From an uncultured Alistipes sp. (GTDB taxonomy: Bacteria; Bacteroidota; Bacteroidia; Bacteroidales; Rikenellaceae): a DNA stretch of 64,000 nucleotides. How positions within the stretch are numbered: position 1 is the first letter of the stretch; every line of letters starts with the position of its first letter. The stretch lies in NCBI GenBank assembly GCA_944320665.1, contig CALUII010000001.1, positions 13,344-77,343 of the forward strand, written 5' to 3'. A program made the translations under genes and the position numbers. Shown piece after piece: positions 14,730-57,905 of this stretch. The notes beneath the pieces are model-generated. The model was not told the origin of the DNA. It made no database searches and saw only the letters and a list, made by a program, of their open reading frames with translations.

Positions 14730-15896
14730 TTACAAATGTAGCGGTTTCAGACGGATTGTCCAAAAGTCGCGCCCGATTTTCGTGAAGGCCATGCGCCGTT
14801 CGCCCCCTTCGCGGATTCCGCACCGGGCGGCGACCTCGGCCGTCGCAAGCGGGAAGTCGCGCTTGAGCAGTTCGACCCGCTCGCCCTTCAGTTCGCGTCG
14901 CAGCGCCTTCGGGTCGTAGGGCTCGATCCGCTCGATGGGCCACACGCGCCCGAGCACCGGCCCGACGGGCTCCTCGCGGGCGAACCCATACCCGTCGTTG
15001 CTCCACAGGTCGGCCACGCCGCGCAGGGCCGCACAGGCCACGCGGGCCTTCTGCAAGGCCACGTCGGGCACCACGAGCCACCCGTAGCGCTGCGGATCGA
15101 ACGCCTCGCGGCAGGGTTCGTTGTCGAGGGCGTCGCGTCGCACCGTGAAGCTGCCGCGACCGAGGGCGGTGGCCGTAAGCTGCGCATCGCGGCCGTCGGC
15201 ATAGATCAACACCTCCTTGCACTCGCCGCCGAGCGAGACGACCTCGACCTCGCACCGACCGAAGCAGGCGAAGGCCTCGTCGACGTCGAAGAGCGGCGAA
15301 TTTTTCACGCACAGCCGTTCAGAGACACGATGTATCGCCTCATCGAGGACCGTCAGGTCGGGCGAGCAGTCGGCCAGCCGCACCCGTTTGCGCCCGTCGG
15401 CGCCGCGGCGGTCGGGATCGGCATAGACCCAGTCGAACCGCTCCGTGGTTGCGGCCAGATACTCCTCGGCGGCGGCGGTGACCACCTCGACGTTGTGCAC
15501 CCCCATGCGGTGCAGGTTCTCGCGCACAACGTCGGCCAGCAGCGGGTCGCGCTCGAGGGCCACGACACGCCGGAAACGCCGGGCCAGGGCCCGGGCATCG
15601 ACACCGAGACCGCACGTGAGGTCGAGCACCGCATCGCCGTCGATGCGTTTGTGCGCGGCGCAGGCCTCGCTCGAGGCCTGTTCGAAGGCGCGCGGCGGCA
15701 CGATGCACCGCGCCTCATACCACGACGGCAGTTTCTCGGCCGCCCGCCGCAGGTACTTCACCTGCGTGGCCACCTCGGCGGCGTGGGGCACACGGCGGTC
15801 GAGCGCCACCTGCAGGGGGTCGCGCCCGAGTTGCTCCTCGACGCACCGGCGGCCTTCGTCGGTGCGGAGCCATGCGACAGTTTCGGGAGTCATCAT
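14730..15896 (-). CDS. class I SAM-dependent methyltransferase with THUMP-like C-terminus
   Basis: FEQASSE, VLDLTCGLGVD, YADPDRR, DCSPD; ATGA overlap with comEC stop. Confidence 0.8.
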   Translation of the reverse strand: MMTPETVAWLRTDEGRRCVEEQLGRDPLQVALDRRVPHAAEVATQVKYLRRAAEKLPSWYEARCIVPPRAFEQASSEACAAHKRIDGDAVLDLTCGLGVDARALARRFRRVVALERDPLLADVVRENLHRMGVHNVEVVTAAAEEYLAATTERFDWVYADPDRRGADGRKRVRLADCSPDLTVLDEAIHRVSERLCVKNSPLFDVDEAFACFGRCEVEVVSLGGECKEVLIYADGRDAQLTATALGRGSFTVRRDALDNEPCREAFDPQRYGWLVVPDVALQKARVACAALRGVADLWSNDGYGFAREEPVGPVLGRVWPIERIEPYDPKALRRELKGERVELLKRDFPLATAEVAARCGIREGGERRMAFTKIGRDFWTIRLKPLHL

Positions 15897-17350
15897 CGCC
15901 GCAAAGATACCTTTTTCTTCGGTTCGGCGCACCCGGCGAGGGCCGTAATTGCGACGAAGAGGGCATAGACCGCGGCCACGGCACCGGCCGAAGGGTGCAT
16001 CTCGACTGCACCCCACGGCCATCGGGCCGCCCAGTCAATCAATCCGTTCTGGGCGGCAGCCAACCCGTCGAGCACCGGTCCGAGGAGGGGAGCCAGCCAC
16101 GGCACGGGGCAGACCATCCAGACCACCGTTCCGAAGAGGAGCAGCGTCGCCAGCGGGATAACCAACGGATTGATCGCCACGCCGGCCAGCGAGATCTGCC
16201 CGAAGTTGCAGGCCACGAGGGGTGCCGTGGCCACCGAGGCGACCAGGCCCACCACCAGCATGTCGACCAGCCAGTCGAGCGGCCTCCACGACGTGCGCAG
16301 CCTCCGTCCGAGGGGCACGGCCCAGGCGAGGATGGCGGCCACGGCGACGAACGAGAGTTGGAAGCTGATGTCGAACAGCCACTGCGGCTCCCACACCAGC
16401 ATGACGAAGGCCGTAGCCGAGAGTATGTTTCCGCTCTTGTAGACCGATCCGGCGGCCAGCGACAGCTGCAGCGCCGAGAACATCAGCGCGGCCCTCACCA
16501 CGCTGGGCGCGAGGCCCGTGACCGAGGCATAGAGCCAGATCAGGGCGACGGCCACGACATTGCGCCAGAGGTGTCCGCGGCGCAGCAGCGGCATCCACCC
16601 CAGCAGCGCATTGACCAACAGGAAGACGATCCCGACGTGCAGGCCCGACACGGCCAGCAGGTGCGACGTTCCGCTTCGGGCATAAGCCTCGCGGCGTGCC
16701 GCGCTGAGGGCCGAGCGTTCGCCGGCCGCCATCGCCTCGCAGAGGGCCTCGCCCTCGGGCGAGAGTCCGAGCCGCCGCAGGCGTTCGACCGCTCCGTCGT
16801 GAAGCGACACGCCACGTGGCGGACAACGTTCGAGCAGTTGCCACGGCGCGATCCACATCGTGCCGACGTAGCCACGCCGGCGCATCAGTGCACCGTATTC
16901 GGGCAGTGCGGCGGGAAAGTCGTTGAGGTAGCTTCGGACGAGCAGCCGTTCGCCCGTCCGCAGGTGCAGGGTCGAGTCACCGCGCACGACGACCCGCAGC
17001 GCTACGGCCCTCCAGCAACCGTCCGCTTCGTCGCGCCAGGCCGTGATTCGGCCCGTGCGTCCCTCGTCGAGCGAGAGTTCGAAATCACACCTCGTGGCGC
17101 GCGGCACGGAGTCGGGCCGGGGCTCGTGCAGCCCGTAGAGTCCCCATCCGAAGAGCAGCAGCGCCCCGACGGCATAGAGCGACGAGCGCCGCACGAGGGC
17201 CAGCGAACCGCACACCACGAACCCGCCCCAGACGAACCACGCGGGGAGCAGGAAGCGGTCGGCAGCGGCTATTCCGACGGCGAACGGGATCAGTGCCCGC
17301 AACATGGGCATCATCGCCAGGCGGGCGTGCAGGTTGTGCAGTGCAAACAT
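15893..17350 (-). CDS. comEC: ComEC/Rec2 competence DNA-uptake channel (no C-terminal lactamase domain)
   Basis: SGTSHLLAVSGLHVG, PSVVRAALM, DISFQLSF, many TM segments; start 17350 or a slightly later Met. Confidence 0.9.
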   Translation of the reverse strand: MFALHNLHARLAMMPMLRALIPFAVGIAAADRFLLPAWFVWGGFVVCGSLALVRRSSLYAVGALLLFGWGLYGLHEPRPDSVPRATRCDFELSLDEGRTGRITAWRDEADGCWRAVALRVVVRGDSTLHLRTGERLLVRSYLNDFPAALPEYGALMRRRGYVGTMWIAPWQLLERCPPRGVSLHDGAVERLRRLGLSPEGEALCEAMAAGERSALSAARREAYARSGTSHLLAVSGLHVGIVFLLVNALLGWMPLLRRGHLWRNVVAVALIWLYASVTGLAPSVVRAALMFSALQLSLAAGSVYKSGNILSATAFVMLVWEPQWLFDISFQLSFVAVAAILAWAVPLGRRLRTSWRPLDWLVDMLVVGLVASVATAPLVACNFGQISLAGVAINPLVIPLATLLLFGTVVWMVCPVPWLAPLLGPVLDGLAAAQNGLIDWAARWPWGAVEMHPSAGAVAAVYALFVAITALAGCAEPKKKVSLRR

Positions 17351-17503
17351 CGCCCAAAGATACGAAAATAACGCATTCGGACACCGCCTGCTGCCGTTCT
17401 CCCCCCCCCGGCCGTCGTTGCCGACCGTTCCGGAACGATCCGGCTGCAACGGCCCGCCGCAAGCGGCGGCCGGCCCCCGTTCTCCGACCGCCGCCACGCC
17501 CGG

Positions 17504-17926
17504 CTACTCCTCCATGTGGCGGTCGATGCGGCGGCGGACGTACTGCCTGAGGCGCTCGAAGATCGGGGCGTCGGAGAGCTGCGCGGCATTCTCGAGGAAG
17601 GACCAGAGTTCAACACCGCACGTGAAGCCGGTGAAGAGTCGCGCCAGATTGAGCTGCATGAACTCCAGCACACAGGAGTCGATGAGCCAGGCCATGGCGA
17701 TGGCCGTGAGGACGAGTCCGAGCTTCACGACCGTGCGCCACGCCTCGCGGCTCTCGAACCACCAGGGGCGCCCCTCGCGGCGGGCCACGGCGCGGCTGGC
17801 CGCCACGCCCGTGACGAAATCGACGCCGATGAAGGCCACGGCGCACCACACCAGCGGGGCGATCGGTGCGAAGAGTCCGGCGACGGCCGCCGCCACGCCG
17901 CTAACGAATCTGTACAAAGTCTCCAT
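17504..17926 (-). CDS. phage holin family protein (TcdE/Phage_holin_4-like)
   Basis: 140 aa, about 3 hydrophobic segments, DFVTGV..S, ES..AWRTVVK, ELWSFLENA pattern. Confidence 0.8.
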   Translation of the reverse strand: METLYRFVSGVAAAVAGLFAPIAPLVWCAVAFIGVDFVTGVAASRAVARREGRPWWFESREAWRTVVKLGLVLTAIAMAWLIDSCVLEFMQLNLARLFTGFTCGVELWSFLENAAQLSDAPIFERLRQYVRRRIDRHMEE

Positions 17927-18374
17927 GGATGCGGCAACGTTTCAGGATGTTCTGCATCGGGTCGTACTCGGGATAGTCCGCCGCCCGTTGGTCGAGGTGG
18001 TCCGATGCGCGCTGCATGAGGGCACGGGCCTGGCTTCGGAGTGCGCGCAGCAGCCGCAGCGACTGACTCTCCGAGACGGGTTCGGCGCCGTCGGGATCGG
18101 CCACAACGGCTCCGCAGCTGCCCGTGCGCACCTCGAGACGCGTCTGCACCAGCACGCGGGTCCAGAGGGCAAGCGGTGCGGCCAGATAGTCGGCGACCAG
18201 TTCGGCATATTCACCGGCAAGCAGGCGTTCGTAGAGGCGCTGCCCGACGACGGGCCGCACGTAACGCACCTCGGCGGCGGCGATGTCGCCCTCGGCCACG
18301 GCCGCCGGATCGAGGTAGTCGCCTCCGGTGAAGGCCAGCGCCGCGACCTGTTCGGATGTGATGAGTGTTTTCAT
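17901..18374 (-). CDS. DUF6712-like phage head-tail adaptor
   Basis: MKTLIT..., IAAAEVRYVRPVVGQRLYERL, DYLAAPLA, YPEY pattern like Bacteroidota phage proteins encoded after the portal. Confidence 0.65.
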   Translation of the reverse strand: MKTLITSEQVAALAFTGGDYLDPAAVAEGDIAAAEVRYVRPVVGQRLYERLLAGEYAELVADYLAAPLALWTRVLVQTRLEVRTGSCGAVVADPDGAEPVSESQSLRLLRALRSQARALMQRASDHLDQRAADYPEYDPMQNILKRCRIHGDFVQIR

Positions 18375-18639
18375 AGGATTACATGATAGTAGGATGGAAG
18401 GTTATCGCATGTTCAATGGTTTTTGTCGGGATCGGCGGCGGCGGACGACGCGCCCCTCCCGCCACGCACCTTCCCTTCGGCGGGCGGCCGTCTCCGACCC
18501 CGTGCGACGACCCCGGGGCGGTGGCTTCGCGGTGTGCGCCCCCCGGGAGGGCAGACACACCGGTCGGCAGACCGTCCCGCGTCGCACGGCGATCGGGCGA
18601 CCGTCCGTCAGATCAGAGAGGGAACGGAGCGGCGGGCAA

Positions 18640-19860
18640 TCAGTCGACGCTGCGCAGGTTGTACTTCGTGATTTCGGAGAGGAACTGCTGCTGTTCGGCA
18701 TCCTGCGGGTCGTACTCGAGGCCGTCGGCCTTGCGGGCCTCCCAGACGCGCATGTAGATGGGTTTCGAACGGGTCGGCGGACGGTTCACGATCTCGAGCG
18801 ACGAGGCGTCGCAGCCGAGCACGCGTTCGATGATGCGGCGAATGGGTTCGAGCAGTTCGGCCTGCTCGCCGAGGATGACCGTATTGAGGGCCACCTCGTA
18901 CTCGTGGAGGATGCGCTCGGCGTTGAATCCCGAGGCGTAGTCCAGGCCGCTGAGGGTGCGGAACCACGAGTGGGCGACGACGATGTCCGAAACGGCCTGG
19001 TCGTGGAGCGACTTCCAGTCGCCCTCGTTCTGCGAGGCGATGGGGATGAATCGCGAGTGGTCGTCGGCCGACCCCTCCTTGACGACGAAGAGCACCTGAC
19101 CGGGGTTTCCGGCAAACTTGCGTTCGGCCGTTCGGATGATCTGTTCGGCCTGCTCCTCGCTGTCGGCGGTGCTGTCGAGCATCATGACGCCCGAGAGCTG
19201 GAAGGAGTTGTCCAGACGCGAGATGTTCCACCGGTCGGTCTTGTAGGCGATGGCCGAGACGTCGAACCCGGCGATGTAGGGGGGCACGCCGTAGTGTTCG
19301 AACATCGGTTCGTAGTCCTTGTAGTGGACGATGCTGCGCAGCGTTCCGTCCTCCAGCTCCTCGAACGCGGGCCAGAGCGGAAGCGATCGGGCCTCCGAAG
19401 GGCGGAAGGCGCTCCAGTCGTGGTGGAGCAGGACGTGCGCCGAGTCGCGAGCCAGTCGGCAGCGCGAGGCGTCCTGATGGAAGAGCGCGAGGAAGCTGCC
19501 GGCGGCGTCGGTCACCACCTCGAGGAAGGCATTGCCGAAGAGCGACTTGTCGAATGCCAGTTTGTTGAGCAGCTGGCGGAGGCTCTCGCCCGATGCGTTG
19601 ACGTGGTCGGCCAGGCTGCGGAGCATCGGTTCGCGGTCGTCGCAGACGATGCCCTTTCCCGAGATGTAGTCGGCCTTGTCGTTGATGATGCGGCGGTGCG
19701 TGGTCGACCGGCGGGCCATGACGGCCAGTGCCACGGGGAAGAGGTTGTCGTCGCCCCAGCGCCAGAAGCGGTCGTTCTCGACGCGCCCGGCCCCGAGGTT
19801 CACATAGGGATCCGTACGGCTGTTGCGCACGACGGATCTACGGATTGAGTTCTTGGACAT
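18640..19860 (-). CDS. phage portal protein (Bacteroidota phage type)
   Basis: WGDDNLFP..L....RRSTTHRRIINDKADYISGKG, FDKSLFGNAFLEV, YGVPPY, IVVAH; 406 aa. Confidence 0.85.
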   Translation of the reverse strand: MSKNSIRRSVVRNSRTDPYVNLGAGRVENDRFWRWGDDNLFPVALAVMARRSTTHRRIINDKADYISGKGIVCDDREPMLRSLADHVNASGESLRQLLNKLAFDKSLFGNAFLEVVTDAAGSFLALFHQDASRCRLARDSAHVLLHHDWSAFRPSEARSLPLWPAFEELEDGTLRSIVHYKDYEPMFEHYGVPPYIAGFDVSAIAYKTDRWNISRLDNSFQLSGVMMLDSTADSEEQAEQIIRTAERKFAGNPGQVLFVVKEGSADDHSRFIPIASQNEGDWKSLHDQAVSDIVVAHSWFRTLSGLDYASGFNAERILHEYEVALNTVILGEQAELLEPIRRIIERVLGCDASSLEIVNRPPTRSKPIYMRVWEARKADGLEYDPQDAEQQQFLSEITKYNLRSVD

Positions 19861-19920
19861 GAGCAGTTTTGTTTCACACGTGAGTGGTGGGTAATCGGAT
19901 CAAGAGGGTTTTTATTCGGC

Positions 19921-20334
19921 TCAGTTGGGGAGGAGGGCCGTCGTGTCGTCGCATTCGAAACGGAGTCGGGCCTCGTTGCCGTCGGCGGGTTTGGCTCCCG
20001 AGGCGATTTCGAATTCGGAGAGTCGTAGGGGGTGTTCCCAGCCGAGAGCATCGGTCCACCCGACGGCCAGCTCCTCGCCGGCGGCGGTGGTGACGACGGC
20101 CGAAGCGCCCTGGGAGACCATCCGTTCGGCAAAGGGGAGGATCTCGCGGGCCGTTTCGCGCGGGACGATGAGATCGAGCGTATGGTGCACGCGCAGGATG
20201 CCGTTGTCGGAGAGGAGCTCCTCGGTGTAGGAGGAGCGCTGATCGAGGAGGAGGATCTCGGGCTGCGCGGTCTGCCCGACGGGGCAGATCCGCACAGCCA
20301 CGATACCTCCCACGGGTTTACGCCGTTCGGTCAT
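19921..20334 (-). CDS. putative tail tube / major tail-like protein
   Basis: 137 aa from ATG 20334; VGGIVAVRI, SSYTEE..SDNG....HTLDL, SGAKPADGNEARLRF beta-rich pattern; directly after the capsid gene. Confidence 0.5.
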   Translation of the reverse strand: MTERRKPVGGIVAVRICPVGQTAQPEILLLDQRSSYTEELLSDNGILRVHHTLDLIVPRETAREILPFAERMVSQGASAVVTTAAGEELAVGWTDALGWEHPLRLSEFEIASGAKPADGNEARLRFECDDTTALLPN

Positions 20335-20339
20335 CGGCC

Positions 20340-21320
20340 TCAGGCTTTGTGGGCGTACACGATGAGCGACTCGTCGAGGACGTCGCAGCCGGCCATGAAG
20401 ACGGCACGCTGACGGTTCTCCATCACGTCGGGGTTGTACCACATGCGGACCTCGTTGCCGGGGAAGTCGGCCGTGTTGACGGCGAGGACGAGATTCCGGC
20501 GGTCGGTGAGGATGGCGAACGACTTGTCGAGCGTCGTACTCTGCGCGAGGTAGGAGCCCAGACGCACGTCGACGATCGGGATGCCGTGATAGGCCAGTTC
20601 GCGGCGGCCGTGCACGGAGTCGATGTAGGCGGATTCGGTTCCGCGGCTGTCGAGGTACTTCTCGTAGAGGTAGTAGAGATCCGAAGTGACGAAGAAGGCG
20701 AGTTGCCCCTCGGCGCGCAGATCCTGGAGTTTGGCGCTTGCATTCTCCCAGAGGTTTTCGAAGATGGCGAGGGCCCCTTCGGGCTGGGCAATGGCCTCGG
20801 CGTCGTAGGTGTGCGAGTAGATGGTTTCGGTCGATGCGAAGGACTTGATCGTCTTGAGGAAGCCGTCAAAGGTGTTGTACCCCGACTCGGCCGTGGTGTC
20901 ACCCATCCACATGGTGGCCCGGATGCTCTCGGCGATCGATCGTTTGAAGAGGGTGGTTTCGGCCTGCTCGACCTCGGTTCCGGAGAGGTCGTCCATGTTG
21001 ACGTCGGCGCGCGCGGTGATCAGTTCGAAGACCAGCGAGAAGTAATCGGCGGCGGAGAATCCGAGTTCGGCCTTCACGCGGCTGAGTTGGATGGTCTTCT
21101 GGTACTTCGTGGCCCCCTCGCCACCGGACCATCCGGCCTCGGTATACTTCTGCAGGACGTTGGGGTTTGCCTCCCAGAGCTGGATGGTCGTGGGCACGGG
21201 CATGTTGTAGAGGATTCGGATGCCGAGCTCCTCGGCCGACTGGCCGGTCAGCATCGGGCGGAAAAAGATGGTTTCGAGCTCCTGACCGGTGTAGGTCTTT
21301 GCACTTTCGAGATAACTCAT
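20340..21320 (-). CDS. putative major capsid protein (HK97-like fold)
   Basis: 326 aa after the prohead protease; WMGDT....YNTFDGFLK, LAYHGIPIV, ILTDRRNLVLAV; strongly biased codons and A-rich leader suggesting high expression. Confidence 0.75.
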   Translation of the reverse strand: MSYLESAKTYTGQELETIFFRPMLTGQSAEELGIRILYNMPVPTTIQLWEANPNVLQKYTEAGWSGGEGATKYQKTIQLSRVKAELGFSAADYFSLVFELITARADVNMDDLSGTEVEQAETTLFKRSIAESIRATMWMGDTTAESGYNTFDGFLKTIKSFASTETIYSHTYDAEAIAQPEGALAIFENLWENASAKLQDLRAEGQLAFFVTSDLYYLYEKYLDSRGTESAYIDSVHGRRELAYHGIPIVDVRLGSYLAQSTTLDKSFAILTDRRNLVLAVNTADFPGNEVRMWYNPDVMENRQRAVFMAGCDVLDESLIVYAHKA

Positions 21321-21434
21321 GGTTTTGGTCTTGTTTTTTTAAGGTTTTATGGATACTGGGGTTCTATTGCCGCTCCGACGGGGCGCCGCCGCGGAGCCTG
21401 GTGGACAAGAGGGGGGGGGTACGTGTGCGGACAG

Positions 21435-22409
21435 CTATCCCTTGGCGAATCGGCGTGCATCCTCGGCATAGGCCTGCTCGTTCGGACGGCGCACCACTTC
21501 ACGCACGGCGGGATCCTCGCGCGGCAGGGTCGATGTGGGGGTTACGGTCTGCTGTCCCTGCTTGAGCGCGACGATCGACCGCGCGACACGGAAGAGGGGG
21601 TCGTCCACCGTATGGAGGATGTTCCGGTCCTCGACCGGATCGGGAGCCGCAGCCCGACTACGCGCACTTCGGTTTCTGGCGCGCCAGCGGCCGAAGAGCC
21701 CCCGTCCCGATCTTTTCCGCTCCGACGCGTGGGCGGCGGCCTCCGCCTCGGCTTCGGCCTCCGCCGGGGTCTGCTCCAGGTCGGTTTCCCGGGTTGTTTT
21801 TCGGTTCTCGGGCTCCGGAGCCGCGTCACCGATCAGTCGGTCGACCAGCCCGGCGTCGATCGCCTCCTGAGGCGAGAGCCAACGCCCGCAGCCGTTGTTC
21901 TGGGCCATCAGCGCGGCCATCTCCTCGACGCTCCGGCCGGCCCGTTCGGCATAGAGGGCCGCGAGACGGCGGTCGGTCTGATGCAGCAGGTCGAGATGGG
22001 CCTCGATCTCGTCGGCATTACCCTCGGTGGCGCAGATGGCGTTGTGGATCAGATAAAGCGCATGGGGCGACATCTCGCGGCAGCCGGCCGATGCGGCCTG
22101 GGCGATGATCGTGGCAGCCGAAGCGGTGTAGCCGTAGCATCGGGTGATGATCTGCGGAGCGTCGAGCGCCCGGAGCGCATCATAGATAAGCAGCGCGTCG
22201 TTCACGTCACCGCCCGTCGATCGGATGTTGACGACCACCTGCCGTGCGTCGATGGCTCCGATGCGGCGCACGGCCTCACAGAAAGCCTCGTAGGTTGCGA
22301 CCCGCTGTGCCGGGTCGTCGAACTGCCACTCCTCGGGCACGCCGATCGTCCCTTCGATGTCGATCGTACAACCCTCGGCGCAATTTCGGATTCGGATGTT
22401 GTTTTTCAT
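21435..22409 (-). CDS. ClpP-like prohead maturation protease with C-terminal scaffold-like extension
   Basis: IDIEGTIG, NIRSTGGDV, ASAATII (catalytic Ser), LIHNA (His), WLSPQEAIDAGLVD; ATG at 22409. Confidence 0.88.
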   Translation of the reverse strand: MKNNIRIRNCAEGCTIDIEGTIGVPEEWQFDDPAQRVATYEAFCEAVRRIGAIDARQVVVNIRSTGGDVNDALLIYDALRALDAPQIITRCYGYTASAATIIAQAASAGCREMSPHALYLIHNAICATEGNADEIEAHLDLLHQTDRRLAALYAERAGRSVEEMAALMAQNNGCGRWLSPQEAIDAGLVDRLIGDAAPEPENRKTTRETDLEQTPAEAEAEAEAAAHASERKRSGRGLFGRWRARNRSARSRAAAPDPVEDRNILHTVDDPLFRVARSIVALKQGQQTVTPTSTLPREDPAVREVVRRPNEQAYAEDARRFAKG

Positions 22410-22418
22410 GATCTTCGA

Positions 22419-22436
22419 TGTGTGTGTGTGTGTGTG
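22419..22436. repeat. (TG)9 dinucleotide tract in the protease leader
   Basis: TGTGTGTGTGTGTGTGTG about 10 nt upstream of the ATG at 22409. Confidence 0.85.
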
Positions 22437-22504
22437 AAGAGAGTGTGTGTATGTCTTTGTCGTATTGTTGTGTGCCGTTGCACCTGCGTGTGCGACGCTT
22501 TTCA

Positions 22505-22771
22505 TCAGCATTTGGCCCTGTAGTATACGGCCCCCTTGACCTTTGCATAGGAGCATCCGCACTGCATGGCCACGGCCTCCATGGCCTCACACCGGGGCAC
22601 GCCCCGGGCCACGAGTCGTTCGACGTCACACCTCAAGGCGGCCTGTTCGCAGCGAGCCGGGGCCACCACCCCGAGCTGCAAGAGGCGCTCGATGGTTTCG
22701 AGCCTTCCGAGTCCCACGGTCTGCTCGTCGAGGAAACGTTTCAGCTCCTCGCGTCCTGCGCCGCACCTCAT
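22505..22771 (-). CDS. small helix-turn-helix-like protein (88 aa)
   Basis: ATG overlaps the upstream stop (ATGA 22768-22771); C-terminal EAMEAVAMQCGCSYAKVKGAVY resembles an HTH. Confidence 0.6.
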   Translation of the reverse strand: MRCGAGREELKRFLDEQTVGLGRLETIERLLQLGVVAPARCEQAALRCDVERLVARGVPRCEAMEAVAMQCGCSYAKVKGAVYYRAKC

Positions 22772-25149
22772 GAACGGTCGTCGGGCAAGAGGGTGAAACG
22801 GCATCGGGCCGAGGCCGCGACGGGATCGTAAGCCTCGATCCTGCGCAGCGTGGCGCACACCTCGCCCTGGTCGGTCGCGATGCGGAAGAGGCTGCGCAGA
22901 TCCGGCACGGCACACCCCGGATTGAAGAGCGCCTCGAACTCGTGGGGTTCCATGCGCAGCGTGAGGGTGACGGCCCGGCGACGGTTTCGTATCGCCTCGT
23001 CGCGGTCGTAGTATCGGTGCAGGCCCTCGAGTCCGTCCCGGTCCTCGAAGCAGAGCGTGGACTGCTCGCCTTCGGCAGCGAGGTGGAACGCCGCGAGGGG
23101 ATAGACGTTTCCGGCCCCGGCCGGATTGGGCCACTGCTCGCCGGCGGGCAGGGTGCGCATGCCGAACCATCGCAGGATGCGTGGCGTGAAGTTCACGCCG
23201 TTCTGCTCCATGTCGTCGCGGTCTCCGACCACGGGCAGCAGAGCCGACGGAGCGTCAGCATACCCCCCGGCGGCACTGACCGTCGGTGCAAAGAGGGGGT
23301 TGGTCCGCCGCTCCAGCCCGGGGATACAAGCCTGCGACTGAGTGGCGGTGTGCCACGATCCGAAGGGATAGACGGGCTCCTCCTCTGCGTCGTCGTCCGC
23401 GACCAACCGGGCCGAGGCTCCGTCTCCGCTGCGGTATCCGTAGATTCGTTCGGCCTTGAGTCCGCAGGCCTCGTCCTCCCAGACAATGGGCTGCGTCCAG
23501 TCGGTTCGGTCCTCCCAGTCGGCCACGCGGCTCTCGTCCCAGAACTCGGCATCGGGTTCGATGAGCACGCATTTGCGGCGTTCGTCAGTGAAGAATCGGA
23601 GTCGGAACATCTGGGCAATGGCCTCGATCCACTCGATCTGCGCGACGTCGTGGCGACAGATCGCCTCGGTATTGAGGCGTTCGCCATAGGCGGGAGCAGG
23701 CGAGAAGAGCGGGCGTACCGAACATTCGCGATGGAGCAGGAAGCGCATCCCCTCGTCGGCCCCGTAGAAGAAGATCGTATTGAAATACTTGGGCGACGCA
23801 GGTCCGACCGTCTCGGCGGGCGTACGGATCGTGCATTCGACGGTTGTTTCGCCACGCTCCTCGATGTGGCCGTCGTAGAGGGCCCAGTCGCCGGTCCATC
23901 GGTTCCACGTACCGCTGCTCATACGATAGTACAGTACCGGATCGGAACAGGATCCCGAGACGGGGGTAGTCAAGCGGGCCGACCGCCCCGTGAAGTCGGT
24001 CCAGAGGCTCGAAGCCACGCCGTTGAGCGTGTAGAGGATCCGGAATTCGACCGTTTCGCCGGCGCCGAAGACCACCACGCGATAGGCCGTATTTTCGGAG
24101 AGTTCGCCGCGACGGTCGACATAGCGGTTCGGGAGGCGGAAGGTGAGGTTTCCGCCCGTTCCGAGGTTGAAGGAGTCGAAACCGGCGAGCCGGTTTCGGT
24201 CGACGATTCGGTGTTCGGTCGTGTAGCGGATGTGGTATTCGAAGGCGACGCTCACGGTCGACAGGGGTCTGTAGACGATCTTCTGGTCTTCGAGTCCGAA
24301 GCAGTTTCCGTTGTTGTAGGCCTCGGTATGGACGATCCCGGCGTTGTCCACGGCGAGGGGCGTGGCCGTCTGCACGATGTTTCCGATGATGTTTCCGGCG
24401 CCATAGGGCGTTGCATAGACTCGTCCCACGGCATCGGCCGTTGCCGATGCCTCGCTCAGCCGCACGGCACGAAATCCCATCCGCGCTTCGGCGGCCGTGG
24501 TGTCATGCTGGGCATAGGCACCGCTAAAGAAGAGCGAACGGAAGAGGTCGCTCTCGAGGAACCGGCTCTCGAGGCTGTACCCGGCCTCTTCGAAGATGGC
24601 CTTCCAGGCGGCCGCGACCGAGATGAACGGGTGGTAATCATCGGGCGTGAGGAGCCTCAGTACGGGTTGCAGATCGGCAGCGTCGTTCTGCTGATCGTAG
24701 CTGTCGCGCCAGACAGGGAGGAACTTCACGAGGTTGTTTATGCTCCACCCCATGGAGATCTCCGTCGGCGTGAGGTATCCGTTATATTGCAGCGGCAGCT
24801 GCTTCATTCTCCGGTCGGCGGCCCGGCGGGCCCAGGCGGCGCCACCCCATCGGAGTTCGACCAGGAAACCCGAGTCGGAGCACTGCACGAGGACGCAACG
24901 CCCGACGACCAACACGGCGCCGTCGCAACCGAGTTGTGCGGGGTGTTCGGCGGTGTTGAAGAGGGGCACTTCGCGCCCGAACCGCTCGTCGTTCGTGGCG
25001 GAGTGCGGCAGTTCGATGCGCAGGGTGTGGTCGTCGGCCTCGGCCGCGGGGTCGAGCAATCGGTCGGCGTCGTAGGTCAGCGCGACGGAGGTCTCCTCGG
25101 CCAGATCGAGGGCGACCTCGTCAACAATCAGTTCGAGTTGGCGTTTCAT
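22768..25149 (-). CDS. large phage tail tip/hub-like structural protein (793 aa)
   Basis: N-terminus LELIVDEVALDL.EETSVALTY...L.DP......IELP....ND..F; FTPRIL; C-terminal IEAYDP.......RFTL, typical of Bacteroidota phage tail proteins. Confidence 0.65.
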   Translation of the reverse strand: MKRQLELIVDEVALDLAEETSVALTYDADRLLDPAAEADDHTLRIELPHSATNDERFGREVPLFNTAEHPAQLGCDGAVLVVGRCVLVQCSDSGFLVELRWGGAAWARRAADRRMKQLPLQYNGYLTPTEISMGWSINNLVKFLPVWRDSYDQQNDAADLQPVLRLLTPDDYHPFISVAAAWKAIFEEAGYSLESRFLESDLFRSLFFSGAYAQHDTTAAEARMGFRAVRLSEASATADAVGRVYATPYGAGNIIGNIVQTATPLAVDNAGIVHTEAYNNGNCFGLEDQKIVYRPLSTVSVAFEYHIRYTTEHRIVDRNRLAGFDSFNLGTGGNLTFRLPNRYVDRRGELSENTAYRVVVFGAGETVEFRILYTLNGVASSLWTDFTGRSARLTTPVSGSCSDPVLYYRMSSGTWNRWTGDWALYDGHIEERGETTVECTIRTPAETVGPASPKYFNTIFFYGADEGMRFLLHRECSVRPLFSPAPAYGERLNTEAICRHDVAQIEWIEAIAQMFRLRFFTDERRKCVLIEPDAEFWDESRVADWEDRTDWTQPIVWEDEACGLKAERIYGYRSGDGASARLVADDDAEEEPVYPFGSWHTATQSQACIPGLERRTNPLFAPTVSAAGGYADAPSALLPVVGDRDDMEQNGVNFTPRILRWFGMRTLPAGEQWPNPAGAGNVYPLAAFHLAAEGEQSTLCFEDRDGLEGLHRYYDRDEAIRNRRRAVTLTLRMEPHEFEALFNPGCAVPDLRSLFRIATDQGEVCATLRRIEAYDPVAASARCRFTLLPDDRS

Positions 25150-25151
25150 GT

Positions 25152-26090
25152 TCAGGCGACGGGACAATGCAGTTCGACTTCGAGATTGCAGAGCGAGCCG
25201 TGTCGTCGGATTCCGGCCGAGTTCGAAGCGACGACGACGGGCTGATAGCCGTTTTCGGGATCGACGATCCAGACCTGCGGAGCGTGGAGCATGCCGGCCA
25301 GAGCGCGCAGCGTGTCGACGGTTTCGTATGCCGAGAGGAGGTTGAGCACGCGCACGGCTCGGGTTTCGGCGGCAGGCTCCCCCCAGACGTTGCGGATCAT
25401 GCGGTCGACGGTCTCGAGGCGCTCCTCGCGGACCACGGGGAAGTCGTAGTGTTCGACGGCCCCGGCGTCGCTTCGCCAGGCGACGCGGCATCCATCCGGA
25501 CGGGACTCGACCACCTCCCAGGAGACCTGCACAAACCGGTCGAAGAGTACGGAGATCCGTTCGGCGTCAGGGAATTCGTTCATATTGAGGCGGAAGAGGC
25601 GGAGTCCCGAGTCCGTCGACGTGAAGTTTCGGGAGGAGGTCTCCCCGTTGCAGAACCACGAGACGGAGGCGACACAACTCTGCGAGGTCAGGAGGGTCAG
25701 TTCGTCGCACTCGCCGCGGGCGATGAGGCGTTTGACGGGCATCGAGCTGAGGAGCGCCGGGGCCTCGACAGCCTCACGCCTCGGGAGGAGGGTCCTGATT
25801 GGGGATCGCACCCCGTCGGCCACGACATCGACGATCAGCGATCGGTCCGGGGCATCGTAGAAGCCGGTAGGCGCGACGGCGGGCTGGAATCGGAGGCGGT
25901 GGCGGAGGAACGGGGCGATATCGATCTGCCCGCCCTGGGATTCGAACATGCGGCGGGCCCCGATCACGTCGCCGACGCCGTAGTCGTAGACCTGCACGTC
26001 GAACGTGCGGGCCGGCTCCGTATCGGAGAAGGCGTAGCGCAACGGGGCGCCGAACGGAGCATAGTCGGGAGGAGTCTGAGTGAATTGCAT
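25152..26090 (-). CDS. phage distal-tail-like structural protein (312 aa)
   Basis: ATG 26090; CRVAWRSDAGAVEHYDF and LAGMLHAPQVWI resemble the W.N..G..DY..F and L..SP.V motifs of the gene preceding the hub protein in such phages. Confidence 0.55.
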   Translation of the reverse strand: MQFTQTPPDYAPFGAPLRYAFSDTEPARTFDVQVYDYGVGDVIGARRMFESQGGQIDIAPFLRHRLRFQPAVAPTGFYDAPDRSLIVDVVADGVRSPIRTLLPRREAVEAPALLSSMPVKRLIARGECDELTLLTSQSCVASVSWFCNGETSSRNFTSTDSGLRLFRLNMNEFPDAERISVLFDRFVQVSWEVVESRPDGCRVAWRSDAGAVEHYDFPVVREERLETVDRMIRNVWGEPAAETRAVRVLNLLSAYETVDTLRALAGMLHAPQVWIVDPENGYQPVVVASNSAGIRRHGSLCNLEVELHCPVA

Positions 26091-26130
26091 GTGGAAAAGG
26101 ATCAGTGTTTTTTTTGCGAGAAGCGAGGCG

Positions 26131-26272
26131 GCACCCGGATGCCGGGCGCGGATGGGGGGGCATAATCCGGAGTGGGCGAAGGGAATCCCGCCGCAATCCG
26201 AGAGGTGCGGGCCGGGGAGAGATGCGGGCCGCCCCGGCCGAACAGCCGGCGGCGTTGCACCCGGATGCCGGG
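26131..26272. repeat. 16-bp direct repeat GCACCCGGATGCCGGG (2 copies)
   Basis: Copies at 26131-26146 and 26257-26272, each containing CCCGG-ATG-CCGGG. Confidence 0.8.
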
Positions 26273-26343
26273 GGAGGGAGTGATGCCCGAGGGGTGCAGA
26301 GGAGCGAGGGAAGGAGAGAGGTGGTGGGGTCGAATGCGCTGGA

Positions 26344-26748
26344 TCAGAACCAGGTGACGATGCGGGCACGAGCCGTCTGAGCAATCTCACCGTGTGGGGT
26401 GAGCGTGGCGGCCGAGGGTTCGATCTGCAGCTCCTCGATGGCCAGGACGCACTCCTCTTCGGAGAGGTCGGAGAGAATTTCGAGGAGCTCCTCTTCGAGT
26501 TGGTCGGCGATCTGCGCCTGTTCCGACGGAGCGGCTCTGGCGGCGGTACGCATGAGGACGAGCGAGAGGTCGTATACGGCCCGGCCGTTGTTCCGGCCCT
26601 CGATCGAACGGAGCGACAGGGGATGCAACAGGGCGGCGGGATAGGCCCTTACGAGCGTGGGGGCGGCCTGCTGACGGAGCGCCAGGAAGTGCCAACCGCG
26701 TTCGACGGCCAACCGTTCGACCGCCTGTTCGAGACGGATGCGGTTCAT
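26344..26748 (-). CDS. putative tail completion/terminator-like protein (134 aa), first gene of the operon
   Basis: ATG 26748; YPAALL.P, YDLSLVLM, helix, then beta strands; size and pattern fit tail terminator folds. Confidence 0.45.
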   Translation of the reverse strand: MNRIRLEQAVERLAVERGWHFLALRQQAAPTLVRAYPAALLHPLSLRSIEGRNNGRAVYDLSLVLMRTAARAAPSEQAQIADQLEEELLEILSDLSEEECVLAIEELQIEPSAATLTPHGEIAQTARARIVTWF

Positions 26749-26874
26749 TGTCGAAAAGATGGATGAAAAAATGTTGAAAACGGTTAACAACTCTCCCCAA
26801 ATTGTTACAGGAGAGTCAGTTGGTCGTGTTGAAAAACTCCGGATCCGGTCCCGGCCAACTGTCGAATGACAGCG

Positions 26875-26907
26875 CAAATATAGCACCCGGCCACCCCCCT
26901 TGTCAAG
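26875..26907 (-). promoter_or_regulatory. Bacteroidota sigma-A promoter driving the phage-like operon
   Basis: Minus strand CTTG-N21-TATATTTG, matching TTTG-N19-21-TAnnTTTG. Confidence 0.65.
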
Positions 26908-26969
26908 AGGTCGGTGCATTTTTTCCGAAAAAAATAGAAGAAAGCCGACCACCGCACCGCGAAAATGAT

Positions 26970-26977
26970 TACTTTTG
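26970..26977 (+). promoter_or_regulatory. -7 element (TACTTTTG) of the mqnA-corA promoter
   Basis: TAnnTTTG match about 32 nt upstream of ATG 27010. Confidence 0.6.
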
Positions 26978-27009
26978 CCGGCGAAACCAACGCTTTCACA
27001 CACCGATGG

Positions 27010-27786
27010 ATGATGGTCATAGTCCCGCGCATAGTCGCCGCCGCGTCACTCGACGCGACGCCCTTCATCTATGGAATCCGACACGATGCTGAACTTCGTG
27101 CCGGACTGACCGTCACACCCACCACCTCCGAGGCGCTTCGCCTCTTCCTCGCCCACGAGGCCGACTACGCCCTGCTCCCCTCGTCACACTACCCCGACCT
27201 GACCGACGCCGAGATCGTCACCGAATACTGCATCGGCTCGACCGCACGCACGGGTAGCGCCCTGCTCGTGGGGAACTGCCTGCCGCAGGCCGCCCGGCGC
27301 ATCCTCTACGATCCCGCCTCGCCCACCACGGCCCAGCTGGCCGCCTACCTCTACAAACGCCACTGGCGCACCGCACCGGAGTTCGAGTCGCGCACGACGC
27401 TTCCGAGCCCCGAAGCCCTCGACGCCACGACGCTCTGCCTGCTCAGCGACGAGGAGGCGCTGCTCCACGGCCCGAACTACGCCCATCAGACTGACCTGGG
27501 GGCCGAATGGCGAGCCACGACGCACCAGCCGTTTGCCTACTCACTGTGGATCGGGCACAAGGAGAACGACAAGGAGCGGACCGAACAGCTGCAACAGGCC
27601 CTCACCTACGGGCTGGAACATACCTACGAAGCGCTGCTCGACGGGGGGTTCACGACGCGCGGCTACGATGCCTACGGGCACCTGACGTGCGACATCGACT
27701 ACATCTACGACAATCAGAAGCAACAGGCACTCCGCAAGTTCTGGGACTCGGGGATCAAGATCGCCCCGCGTGTCAATCCCGGCTGA
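27010..27786 (+). CDS. mqnA: MqnA-like chorismate dehydratase (futalosine pathway), divergent
   Basis: PFIYGI, ADYALLP, EYCIG, DLGAEW...T.QPFAYSLW; several family motifs altered. Confidence 0.7.
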   Translation: MMVIVPRIVAAASLDATPFIYGIRHDAELRAGLTVTPTTSEALRLFLAHEADYALLPSSHYPDLTDAEIVTEYCIGSTARTGSALLVGNCLPQAARRILYDPASPTTAQLAAYLYKRHWRTAPEFESRTTLPSPEALDATTLCLLSDEEALLHGPNYAHQTDLGAEWRATTHQPFAYSLWIGHKENDKERTEQLQQALTYGLEHTYEALLDGGFTTRGYDAYGHLTCDIDYIYDNQKQQALRKFWDSGIKIAPRVNPG

Positions 27787-27866
27787 AGGGACTGAGGACC
27801 GGGCCCGGTCCGGTCGTCTCCGGCCTACACGACATGTACCACCCCAAACAACCAAAGGAGCGACTT

Positions 27867-28850
27867 ATGATAACGATCTATCTGAAACAATACAACAAGA
27901 TCATCCGCAACGCCGACACGGCGCTGTTCGACGAGCTGGGCTACGACGACATACTGTGGATCGACATGTTGCAGCCGACGATCAAGGAGCAGAAGGCGGT
28001 CGAGAACTTCATGGAGATCAGCCTCCAGACGAAGCAGCAGGTCGAGGAGATCGAGTCGACGTCGAAATACTCCGAGACGGAGAATGCCATCATCTCGAAC
28101 TCGAACTTCTTCATCCCGACGGGCGAGAGTTTTCTGATCGAGCCGGTATCGTTCATCATCTCGAACGAAGGCGTCCTGGTTTCGGTCCGCAACGCCGAGT
28201 TCCGCACGTTCCGCGAGACGGAGAAGCGCCTACAGATGAACTACCGCAGCTACTCGACGGGCTACCACGTCTACATCTCGCTGCTGGAGGTGCGCATCGA
28301 CTTCGATGCGGACCTCGTCGAGCTGGTCTCGAAACAGGTTGCCGCTCTGAGCCGCGACGTGAACTCGGAGGACACGATCGACAAGGAGATCCTGCACCGC
28401 ATCAGTGCGCTGCAGGACAGCACGATGTCGTTGCGCGAGAACATCTTCGACCGGCAGCGCGTGTTGTCGGGCATTCTGCGTTCGGAACGCTTTCCGAACG
28501 ATATCTACCCGCGCCTTCAGTTGATGATCAAGGACGTGAATTCGCTGATCAACCACGCCGACTTCTCGTTCCAGCGACTGGACTACATCCAGGATGCGGC
28601 ACTGGGTCTGATCACGATCGAACAGAACGAGATCGTGAAGATCTTCTCGGTGGCGGCGGTGATCTTCCTTCCGGCGACGCTGATCGCCAGCATGTACGGC
28701 ATGAACTTCAAGTACATGCCCGAACTCGAATGGACCATCGAACTTCCGAACGGCTGGGTGCTCCCGATGGGTTACCTCTTTGCCATCTTCCTGATGCTGC
28801 TGAGTTCGGGACTCACGATCTGGTTCTTCAAGTACAAGAAGTGGCTCTGA
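27867..28850 (+). CDS. corA: magnesium/cobalt transporter
   Basis: LWIDM..P, QNEIVKIFS, YGMNF signature, two C-terminal TMs. Confidence 0.93.
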   Translation: MITIYLKQYNKIIRNADTALFDELGYDDILWIDMLQPTIKEQKAVENFMEISLQTKQQVEEIESTSKYSETENAIISNSNFFIPTGESFLIEPVSFIISNEGVLVSVRNAEFRTFRETEKRLQMNYRSYSTGYHVYISLLEVRIDFDADLVELVSKQVAALSRDVNSEDTIDKEILHRISALQDSTMSLRENIFDRQRVLSGILRSERFPNDIYPRLQLMIKDVNSLINHADFSFQRLDYIQDAALGLITIEQNEIVKIFSVAAVIFLPATLIASMYGMNFKYMPELEWTIELPNGWVLPMGYLFAIFLMLLSSGLTIWFFKYKKWL

Positions 28851-56462: not shown

Positions 56463-56852
56463 CTCTTTTTCTTTTTTATTCCTTTTTAAAATTTAAATAA
56501 GAAAATAAGAATAAAAATAAAGGGTGTTCATACTGTGCATAACTTCACCCGTCGCGGAGTTATCGACAACCGCATGGATTTCTGTTCTTATTTTCACGCC
56601 TCGTTGTTTTTTGGGATCAATGAGTTGGCGGTTTTATGAACAAATGTTCCTTTTCGTTTTCAACATTTCGACACTCCCGAATTATGAACATCTGCCCGGT
56701 TGTTGCTGTTTGTTTCGCCGGCAGTAACTTGTGAAAACTTTTTTTGGATATCCGGAAAAGTTGGTCATACACTCGGGGAGTTGGTTTTTGCAAATTTTCG
56801 GGTCTCGATTTTTCACGACTTGTCGACGGTTTTTTACCGGGTTTTGAACAGG
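56463..56852. other. oriC: candidate chromosomal replication origin (oriC)
   Basis: AT-rich tract, NAN trio-like run 56498-56521, GGG, tandem boxes TGTTCATAC/TGTGCATAA (56525-56542), further boxes at 56560, 56634, 56657, 56682, 56842; parS and mnmG about 10 kb away. Confidence 0.75.
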
Positions 56853-57905
56853 CTAAAGTTGGTTTTTCATCACCTTATCGACAATCTTTTGGGCGACGTC
56901 CCGGTAGTAGGGTTCGACCATAGGGTCGCACGTTGCGGCGGGGCTGCCCGCATCGCTTCCCTCCATAATCGACTGAACGATCGGAATTTCGCCCAGAAAA
57001 TCGACGCCGTTCTCCTCGGCGAACCGGCGTGCACCGCCCCGTCCGAAGAGGTAGTATCGGTTCTGCGGCAGTTCGGCGGGGGTGAACCAGGCCATGTTTT
57101 CGACAATGCCGGCCACGGGGATCTTCACCTGCGGGTTGCGGAAGAGCTCCACGCCGCGGCGTACGTCGGCCACGGCGACCTGCTGCGGCGTCGAGACGAT
57201 GACGGCGCTGTCGATCTTCAGTTCGTTAATAATAGATAGGTGTATGTCGCCCGTCCCGGGGGGGAGGTCCGTGAGCAGGACGTCGAGTTTACCCCACCGC
57301 GTCTGGTGGATGAGTTGCCGGAGGGCGTTGACGGCCATGGCGCCGCGCCAGAGCAGGGCGTCGTTGGGTTTGACGAAGAATCCGATCGACATGATCTTGA
57401 TTCCCATCGACTCCGCCGGAACGATCTGGTCCATGTCGTCCTCGTGTACGGCGGCGGGCAGGTAGTCCTCCACACCGAAGAGCTTCGGCTGCGAGGGGCC
57501 GTAGATGTCGGCGTCGAGTATGCCGACGCGGTATCCCAGGTTTCGGAGGGCGATGGCGAGGTTGGCCGTGACGGTCGACTTGCCGACGCCGCCCTTGCCC
57601 GAAGCGACGGCCACCACGTGACCGATCTGGCCGGTCGTTGATTTCTGTTCGGCCTCGACCTTGCGGGGGGTACCCTCGTGCACGTCGACCTCGACGGTGC
57701 ACTGCGGGAAGGCTTCGGCGATCGCCTCCTGAGCCTGTTTTCTGAGTTTCGGGGCGAAGGGGTCACGCGCCTTGGCGAAGCGGAGCGTGACGACGATTCG
57801 CTCCGCCGAGGCCTCGATGCGCTCGACCATACCGCCCGAGAGCAGATCGTGTCCCTTTTCGGGGTGTATGATGGCGGAGAGCAGTTCTCTGATTTTTTTC
57901 TCCAT
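56853..57905 (-). CDS. mrp: Mrp/NBP35 (ApbC) Fe-S cluster carrier ATPase
   Basis: ASGKGGVGKST, DADIYGPS, DLPPGTGD, STPQ, GIVENM. Confidence 0.95.
   Translation of the reverse strand: MEKKIRELLSAIIHPEKGHDLLSGGMVERIEASAERIVVTLRFAKARDPFAPKLRKQAQEAIAEAFPQCTVEVDVHEGTPRKVEAEQKSTTGQIGHVVAVASGKGGVGKSTVTANLAIALRNLGYRVGILDADIYGPSQPKLFGVEDYLPAAVHEDDMDQIVPAESMGIKIMSIGFFVKPNDALLWRGAMAVNALRQLIHQTRWGKLDVLLTDLPPGTGDIHLSIINELKIDSAVIVSTPQQVAVADVRRGVELFRNPQVKIPVAGIVENMAWFTPAELPQNRYYLFGRGGARRFAEENGVDFLGEIPIVQSIMEGSDAGSPAATCDPMVEPYYRDVAQKIVDKVMKNQL

Follow-up and report, generated by a model that had tools for sequence, protein, structure and literature searches.

A two-locus system of inherited, phage-derived genes in Rikenellaceae as a candidate gene transfer agent of Bacteroidota

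The 64,000-nucleotide window analyzed here, from an uncultured Alistipes sp. (GenBank assembly GCA_944320665.1, contig CALUII010000001.1, positions 13,344 to 77,343), contains a minus-strand run of ten co-oriented open reading frames (ORFs) at 17504-26748. An earlier reading of the letters of this window (the original prediction) had proposed it to be a domesticated virion operon resembling a gene transfer agent (GTA). Comparisons among genomes indicate that this head/tip operon is part of a real, ancient, inherited, and still-selected phage-derived particle system, which occupies two loci in about nine-tenths of Rikenellaceae genomes. The domestication of phage genes is well supported by these comparisons. 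The system is probably an independently evolved GTA-like agent in Bacteroidota, known here from genes alone. The operon and a distant module of repressor, orf96, and terminase genes appear to descend from one temperate siphophage that was fixed in the ancestor of most Rikenellaceae. Together, the two loci probably give rise to small particles with a stub tail, which would package chromosomal DNA of the host regardless of its sequence.

Composition of the head/tip operon

The genes of the operon are listed in the order of transcription. Fractions refer to 40 operons that were read end to end, with operons cut by contig ends left out, and omega denotes the ratio of nonsynonymous to synonymous substitution rates (dN/dS).

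26344-26748, minus strand: o1, 134 amino acids (aa), putative tail terminator; its homolog precedes the tail-tip genes in related phages, and it is often lost together with o7
25152-26090, minus strand: o2, 312 aa, Dit-like (distal tail) protein with two N-terminal immunoglobulin (Ig)-like domains, from predicted fold and gene position
22768-25149, minus strand: o3, 793 aa, predicted baseplate hub of the gp27/Tal/T5 pb3 fold, interrupted at about residues 216-485 by a TNF/C1q-like domain
22505-22771, minus strand: o4, 88 aa, no assigned function; its homolog comes after the tape measure gene in related phages (25/40 operons; omega 0.14)
21435-22409, minus strand: ClpP-type prohead protease with a scaffold-like tail, 324 aa (PF00574, phrog_94)
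20340-21320, minus strand: likely major capsid protein, 326 aa (phrog_1623, E = 6e-10, and position; 40/40 operons)
19921-20334, minus strand: o7, 137 aa, putative tail tube, shortened relative to phage homologs of 171-186 aa (22/40 operons)
18640-19860, minus strand: portal, 406 aa (PF04860 above cut-off; omega 0.10)
17901-18374, minus strand: DUF6712 protein, 157 aa, putative head-tail adaptor as judged by its position following the portal (PF20459; 40/40 operons)
17504-17926, minus strand: holin, 140 aa (PF05105)

As originally described, all ten ORFs are free of internal stops and tightly spaced, with an ATGA overlap at 22768-22771 (o3/o4), gaps of 2 nt (o2/o3) and 5 nt (capsid/o7), and a 26-nt overlap between the DUF6712 and holin genes. 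The end coordinate first given, 26907, corresponds to the first base of a conserved promoter, whereas the first ORF (o1) starts at 26748. The family assignments agree with the searches: the protease, portal, DUF6712, and holin proteins score above the Pfam cut-offs, and the capsid-like protein matches phrog_1623. In addition, a prophage capsid homolog with 47% identity matches PF20911 below the cut-off. The protease Ser and His noted as intact are Ser97 and His122, which are kept in all 44 copies compared.

The AlphaFold2 model of o3 (predicted local distance difference test score, pLDDT, 91.7) aligns best with Z = 12.8 (root-mean-square deviation, rmsd, 4.5; 306 residues), and the top 18 structure rows are all hubs of phage tails and injection systems. 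For o2 (AlphaFold2 model pLDDT 95.7), residues 196-312 align to the phage p2 baseplate chain 2wzp_P (Z = 7.1, rmsd 6.0, 111 residues). This Z is middling and inside the chance range for that structure library, and Foldseek returned Ig-rich proteins as the sole matches. The Dit reading is supported by gene position. No family or solved-structure match was found for o1, o4, or o7. Specifically for o7, Pfam and PDB sequence searches gave no match, and the named Atlas clusters that come closest (0.85-0.86) are tail tube families, which is a lead and no more. From these predictions, the operon would produce a head that ends in a tail tip, with a very short tube or none.

Distribution and gene content among Rikenellaceae

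The portal gene was found in 35 of 36 genomes of the same genus and in 265 of 300 genomes of the family, and the terminase gene in 270 of the same 300. This family-wide presence, a check that had been proposed with the prediction, is not the patchy pattern of a strain-specific element. Most genomes carry a single copy, with more than one match in 10 portal-positive and 22 terminase-positive genomes (counted from the match listings). Six genera (15 genomes) lack both genes, and a seventh has no portal and one terminase among seven genomes. On an rpoB tree built with FastTree, representatives of six of these genera, one genome per genus, fall into a single clade (support 0.996), such that one gain or one loss suffices to explain the distribution. 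As a control for detection, two partly overlapping sets of 30 genomes were compared; rpoB turned up in 27 genomes of one set and the terminase in 29 of the other. The capsid gene was not found in any of the 149 genomes examined from other families of the order.

Among the 40 complete operons, the hub, protease, capsid, portal, and DUF6712 genes are always present and the core order is always kept. The remaining genes are more variable, with o2 in 39, the holin in 28, o4 in 25, o1 in 24, and o7 in 22 operons. The o1 and o7 genes are kept together in 21 operons and lost together in 15, as would be expected of a terminator and tube pair. A 135-aa lysin gene (phrog_873, E = 3.5e-38 in a relative) comes after the holin in 26 operons. 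It is absent from the operon in the window, without a tblastn match anywhere in this genome, and is also missing in two of the three nearest kin of this copy.

Several copies have unusual structures. In three genomes (L073, L083, and L088), an unrelated 85-aa beta-rich frame takes the place of o7 between capsid and portal. In L046 (G021), the protease and DUF6712 genes look frameshifted and both lysis genes are missing, which indicates either a decaying copy or an assembly error. Two metagenomic copies (IMG/VR contigs L160 and L161) carry a 6-8-kb insertion that interrupts the capsid gene and represent rare broken alleles.

Selection and descent

Codon-model omega values of the cluster genes are 0.07-0.24 across the genus, 0.06-0.27 in the tube-less subset, and 0.05-0.19 for this genome and its two or three nearest kin. 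All of these are far below 1 and similar to the value for comEC (0.19), with rpoB at 0.04 under the same model. Pairwise NG86 estimates were higher (medians 0.10-0.85; sister pairs 0.05-0.29), because dS saturates in these genes with high GC content at third codon positions (GC3), and the codon model was used instead. Sequences shorter than 75% of the median length or containing N were dropped from the alignments.

The phylogeny of six cluster genes was compared with that of rpoB in 23 genomes. With rpoB codon positions 1 and 2, the two trees have 12 of 20 splits in common (random maximum 2) and no strongly supported conflict, and the distances are correlated (rho 0.89). With the rpoB protein tree, 8 of 20 splits are in common and four conflicting pairs are strongly supported. 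The cluster trees thus broadly, not exactly, follow the host tree, which suggests that descent was broadly vertical, with noise or some exchange inside the family.

Related temperate phages and the second locus

The closest relatives are temperate siphophages of Rikenellaceae (G022:C31; L171, L188, L196, L197, and L229), with portals 48-66%, terminases 56-62%, and capsids 45-58% identical to those of the chromosomal system. The complete prophage of G022 and the IMG/VR contigs agree with the chromosomal operon in gene set and gene order, starting at the gene that comes after the terminase and ending at DUF6712; this starting gene corresponds to the first gene of the operon. These phages also carry an integrase, replication genes, a small terminase with a helix-turn-helix (HTH), a tail chaperone, a tape measure (about 900-1480 aa), and fibers. 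In every chromosomal copy the gap between hub and protease is at most about 1.1 kb, compared with a tape measure gene of 2.7-4.4 kb, and therefore leaves no room for it. Phage fiber and small terminase proteins gave no tblastn match in this genome.

In a tree of four head proteins, the 43 chromosomal copies are split from seven phage copies (SH support 1.0), the latter being those that bear a tape measure or are linked to an integrase. In 27 of the 50 rows of this tree, the same split has an ultrafast bootstrap (UFBoot) support of 100. The chromosomal copies therefore form a clade of their own and are not nested among active phages.

A search of the same genome with PF03237 located a large terminase gene (470 aa) at G000:C2:56509-57918. 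It is preceded by a 96-aa ORF (orf96) and by a divergent gene for a CI-like repressor with HTH and S24 domains. The module lies between tsaD-like and oxoacid-oxidoreductase-like genes, as named from their translations. Genus g52 is the only one in which this module is next to the operon; elsewhere the two lie far apart. In the terminase, Walker A, Walker B, the coupling motif, and the nuclease residues D311, E367, and D446 are invariant in 37 of 37 sequences. The self-cleavage dyad of the repressor is also well conserved (Ser in 30 and Lys in 29 of 32). Since orf96 is an early gene in four of the five phage records searched, the second locus appears to have arisen by deletion of everything from the early region to the terminase.

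These results refine two earlier statements. Integrase, replication, tape measure, and fiber genes are gone, although the loss is not as clean as first described, given that the large terminase and the repressor are retained at the second locus, which helps the case for domestication. Likewise, no repressor is present beside the operon, as had been stated, but one sits with the terminase elsewhere in the genome.

The WHD change of the terminase nuclease was rejected as a mark of domestication, as the nearest phages have the same change. The prophage at G022:C31 (L066:5149 to L065 ~1100) looks complete, is of the ancestral type, and contains a diversity-generating retroelement (Avd PF22296, reverse transcriptase, and Lcl_C target).

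Erosion of the small terminase

In the related phages, the terminase gene is preceded by one for a small terminase of the Sf6 type that carries an HTH. Of the 39 chromosomal terminase loci compared, five (in five genomes from three early-branching genera) still have relics of this gene between orf96 and the terminase; the HTH is kept in one relic, and only the central and C-terminal parts remain in the other four. The gene was not found in the other 34 loci, including all 24 Alistipes loci, and a whole-genome search of four Alistipes genomes gave no match. Matches to PF03592 were found in two of five genomes, far from both loci.

Two other candidates for this role were excluded. For orf96, hhalign found nothing, and the gene is an early gene in the phages. 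The leader ORF o0 also gave nothing with hhalign and weakly matches the gene after the terminase. Separately, three runs on binding of orf96 to the terminase disagreed, with scores of 0.00, 0.45, and 0.00.

In the available parts of the respective sources, the small terminase (TerS) of RcGTA is described as having no specific DNA-binding domain (PMC7947584), and the candidate small terminase of FpGTA is likewise without one (PMC12946183). By analogy, the erosion of the HTH and then of the gene in Rikenellaceae resembles GTA-type packaging and predicts that DNA would be packaged non-specifically.

Flanking genes and base composition

The operon is flanked by comEC (PF03772) and mqnA (PF02621), in agreement with the original prediction.

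15893-17350, minus strand: comEC (PF03772), flanking gene, co-oriented and about 150 nt after the holin

The proposed comEC-cluster-mqnA synteny holds in part of the genus, and comEC lies within the fetched flank in 13 of the 40 complete operons. The composition of the operon resembles that of its neighbors, as had been judged by eye (GC 0.61-0.67 and GC3 0.77-0.90, compared with GC 0.56-0.70 and GC3 0.84-0.88 in five flanking genes). The absence of an integrase and of att-like repeats at the locus was also borne out, the latter among the largest repeat families listed for 16500-28000, and no tRNA is present in the 64,000-nt window. The source assembly is 88.5% complete, such that absences in this genome alone are weak. 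In several relatives (L034, L035, L038, and L039), the flanking mqnA is in fragments while the adjacent phage-derived genes are intact.

Regulatory sequences

The leader of the operon contains a putative promoter and three short motifs.

26875-26907, minus strand: promoter of Bacteroidota type, with a TTGACA element at 26900-26907 and a TAnnTTTG element at 26875-26882
26749-26835, minus strand: three DnaA-box-like 9-mers at 26827-26835, 26772-26780, and 26749-26757, from motif matching, with DnaA binding presumed

The TTGACA...TAnnTTTG pattern, which we take to be the Bacteroidota promoter consensus, is present in 41 of 43 operon leaders. Downstream of this promoter, direct repeats of TTWTYVACA occur in 77 sense and 13 antisense copies in the 43 leaders, compared with 4.7 in shuffled sequences, an excess that is overstated, given that these same leaders served to define the motif by eye. 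One leader has two copies of TTATCCACA. In this genome, the operon leader is the only 300-nt stretch with three copies of TTWTYVACA. The motif, which resembles the DnaA box, is also found in three of four dnaA leaders; a literature search for the DnaA box of Bacteroidota yielded no paper. On balance, control of the head/tip operon by DnaA is slightly favored by these patterns.

DnaA-box-like motifs were also observed in two other places. One is a conserved, AT-rich intergenic stretch flanked by HIT-family and HTH genes in four genomes (G000:C47:10763-11424; L243, L244, and L249), which lies away from dnaA and may be a replication origin. The other is a cluster at 56500-57100 of the window, around the gap between nadA-like and Mrp/ApbC-like genes, which is seen in G236 as well.

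At the second locus, a palindrome RTTCAA-N3-TTGAAY precedes the repressor gene and scores highly at its own locus. A single operator shared by both loci was ruled out, with the site in just 10 of 41 operon leaders. A role of the repressor as a host SOS regulator was also ruled out, as six other top sites inspected in this genome are not beside repair genes.

Proposed mechanism and alternative explanations

The gene content is consistent with the following sequence of events. The head/tip operon would be transcribed from its conserved host-type promoter, probably gated by the DnaA boxes of the leader, and the CI-like repressor, with its intact Ser/Lys dyad, would hold the terminase off until DNA damage released it. 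A prohead would be assembled at the portal by the protease and capsid; lacking a partner that recognizes pac, the large terminase would then fill it with host DNA by a headful mechanism. The adaptor, at most one or two tube rings, Dit, and the hub would make up a short tip, on which the Ig and C1q-like domains may bind kin. Particles would be released by the holin, plus the lysin where present, and a recipient would import the DNA and recombine it, possibly via ComEC. More tentatively, and with clearly lower confidence, the system might be a minimal and first GTA of Bacteroidota, consisting of a head and tail tip with no tape measure, often no tube, and in Alistipes no small terminase. Its damage-released motor and its shell operon, coupled by DnaA to the state of replication, would then serve the sharing of chromosomal DNA as a repair template in times of stress.

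Several observations weigh against a DNA-delivering particle of common descent. The tape measure is in no copy, and o7 and o1 are missing in 18 and 16 of the 40 operons, respectively, which leaves DNA delivery unexplained. The initiation of packaging by a terminase without any small subunit also has no explanation. For particle release, the holin is missing in 12, the lysin in 14, and both in six of the 40 operons; outside the operon, no lysin gene was recovered from this genome or from four of five others. Of 41 leaders, 10 have the repressor operator at the operon promoter with a score of at least 9 bits, and the leader in the window is not among them. With regard to descent, the terminase tree alone fails to separate phage from chromosomal copies, and approximately unbiased (AU) tests reject the exact topology of each gene for the others (p of 0.03 or less). 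Lastly, a published table of packaging events from gut virus-like particles includes 'A. avistercoris', which we take to be an Alistipes. Rikenellaceae were plentiful in the stool of that study, yet the 63 events in the available part of that source include two from Alistipes, both prophage induction and none a GTA (PMC12946183), which speaks against abundant constitutive production. Both Alistipes events have second peaks (11.3 and 13.1 kb), and second peaks are common in that table (PMC12946183).

The missing tape measure and the frequent loss of tube and terminator, alongside Ig/C1q-like surface domains under selection, would also fit particles that are assembled and loaded with host DNA yet fail to deliver it. 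Such particles could act as decoys, in kin-killing, in adhesion, or in programmed lysis and DNA release with a PBSX-like outcome, and the available part of PMC12946183 raises the same doubt for FpGTA, citing PBSX. This explanation is rather unlikely, although it is the most probable of those considered here besides a GTA. A mere decoy would hardly justify the cost of an ATPase and a nuclease that are strictly conserved, and no sheath or long tail of the type seen in killer particles is found. Moreover, FpGTA particles are likewise without a visible tail in the part of that source available (PMC12946183). Somewhat less probable still is a role only in the presence of a related temperate phage, which would supply tube, tape measure, small terminase, and lysis, while the host proteins divert assembly into host-DNA-filled or dud virions as a defense or for boosted transduction. 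Those are exactly the parts that are missing or patchy, related phages with 62-66% identical portals circulate (one being the prophage in G022), and orf96 is an early gene in these phages. However, a tail borrower would not need the tail tip that is kept, the system has its own repressor, and its capsids are just 45-58% identical to those of the phages. It is also kept in genomes in which the terminase search found no second copy.

An ordinary defective prophage in slow decay is very improbable. Genes were indeed lost stepwise along lineages, and this copy has no lysin and a short o7. Nevertheless, retention matches that of a universal marker, omega is 0.05-0.27, active sites are invariant, the promoter is conserved in 41 of 43 leaders, and GC3 is host-like. 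The preference for domestication over random decay expressed in the original prediction is thus upheld by the presence, gene order, low dN/dS, and host-like trees of the system and by its separation from active phages.

Comparison with known systems

The features of other phage-derived elements fit the system poorly. An active temperate prophage would have an integrase, att sites, replication genes, a tape measure, and a small terminase, a set that the chromosomal copies do not have. Tailocins are built on a tape-measure tail and have no head, portal, or terminase, whereas here the head and terminase are kept and the tape measure is lost. Capsid-forming phage satellites have an integrase, a replication module, and a mobile, patchy presence, none of which is seen. 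The GTA known as RcGTA, of the family Rhodogtaviriformidae, keeps its small terminase, tape measure, and tube, whereas the Rikenellaceae copies have lost the tape measure in every case and the small terminase in most. Regulation also differs, pointing here to a CI-like repressor and DnaA-like boxes rather than to CtrA/GafA. The two have headful-type ancestry in common, evident here from the Sf6-like small terminase of related phages. As the closest relatives identified are phages of the gut family itself, an origin separate from that of the RcGTA family is implied. PBSX of Bacillus subtilis is long-tailed and kills; in the Rikenellaceae system, no tape measure or sheath was found.

GTAs, as defined in the available parts of two sources (PMC7947584; PMC12946183), have chromosomal genes for the head and packaging machinery of tailed phages, carry none for their own integration or replication, are spread over several loci, and are inherited vertically under purifying selection. 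All of these are found in the Rikenellaceae system, with portal, capsid, protease, and terminase genes and with a congruence that is broad, not exact. The definition further includes a packaging motor indifferent to sequence, which the loss of the small terminase HTH or of the whole gene would predict here, as well as particles with short random pieces of host DNA and the transfer of markers to recipients. RcGTA and its relatives in Alphaproteobacteria similarly have multi-locus, vertically inherited head-tail genes and a small terminase without specific DNA recognition (PMC7947584, in part). The FpGTA of Faecalibacterium prausnitzii is close in design (PMC12946183, in part). It belongs to a gut anaerobe, has a ten-ORF operon of about 10 kb and a second locus, a small terminase without a DNA-binding domain, a short or invisible tail, and genus-wide conservation. 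In contrast, FpGTA comes from another phylum and ancestor, and its terminase is in the head operon with the tip and lysis genes apart, the reverse of the split seen here; FpGTA particles with 9-kb DNA were observed, whereas the Rikenellaceae system is known from its genes. PBSX is described as a fixed defective phage with a damage-inducible repressor and host-DNA packaging (PMC12946183, in part), properties that the genes suggest here.

A literature search, with subscription journals largely outside its reach, found no description of this system, and no GTA in Bacteroidota turned up. Few GTA lineages are known. If the GTA reading is true, retention by about 90% of the genomes of a major gut family would give Alistipes a permanent route for the exchange of chromosomal genes. 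Close active phages and living intermediates (small terminase with HTH, without HTH, or absent; tube and terminator kept or lost) make the path from phage to GTA directly testable. The available part of PMC13371034 does not mention Rikenellaceae. Caution is also needed with databases, as some IMG/VR 'viral' contigs and Alistipes prophage calls are this chromosomal locus.

Other prophage sequences

In one metagenomic contig (L157), the end of a Mu-like prophage adjoins a copy of the operon. Furthermore, a 6.1-kb contig of the genome under study (G000:C65) is a piece of a second, unrelated prophage, with a capsid-like ORF at 275-1180 and matches to a phage lysin and tape measure.

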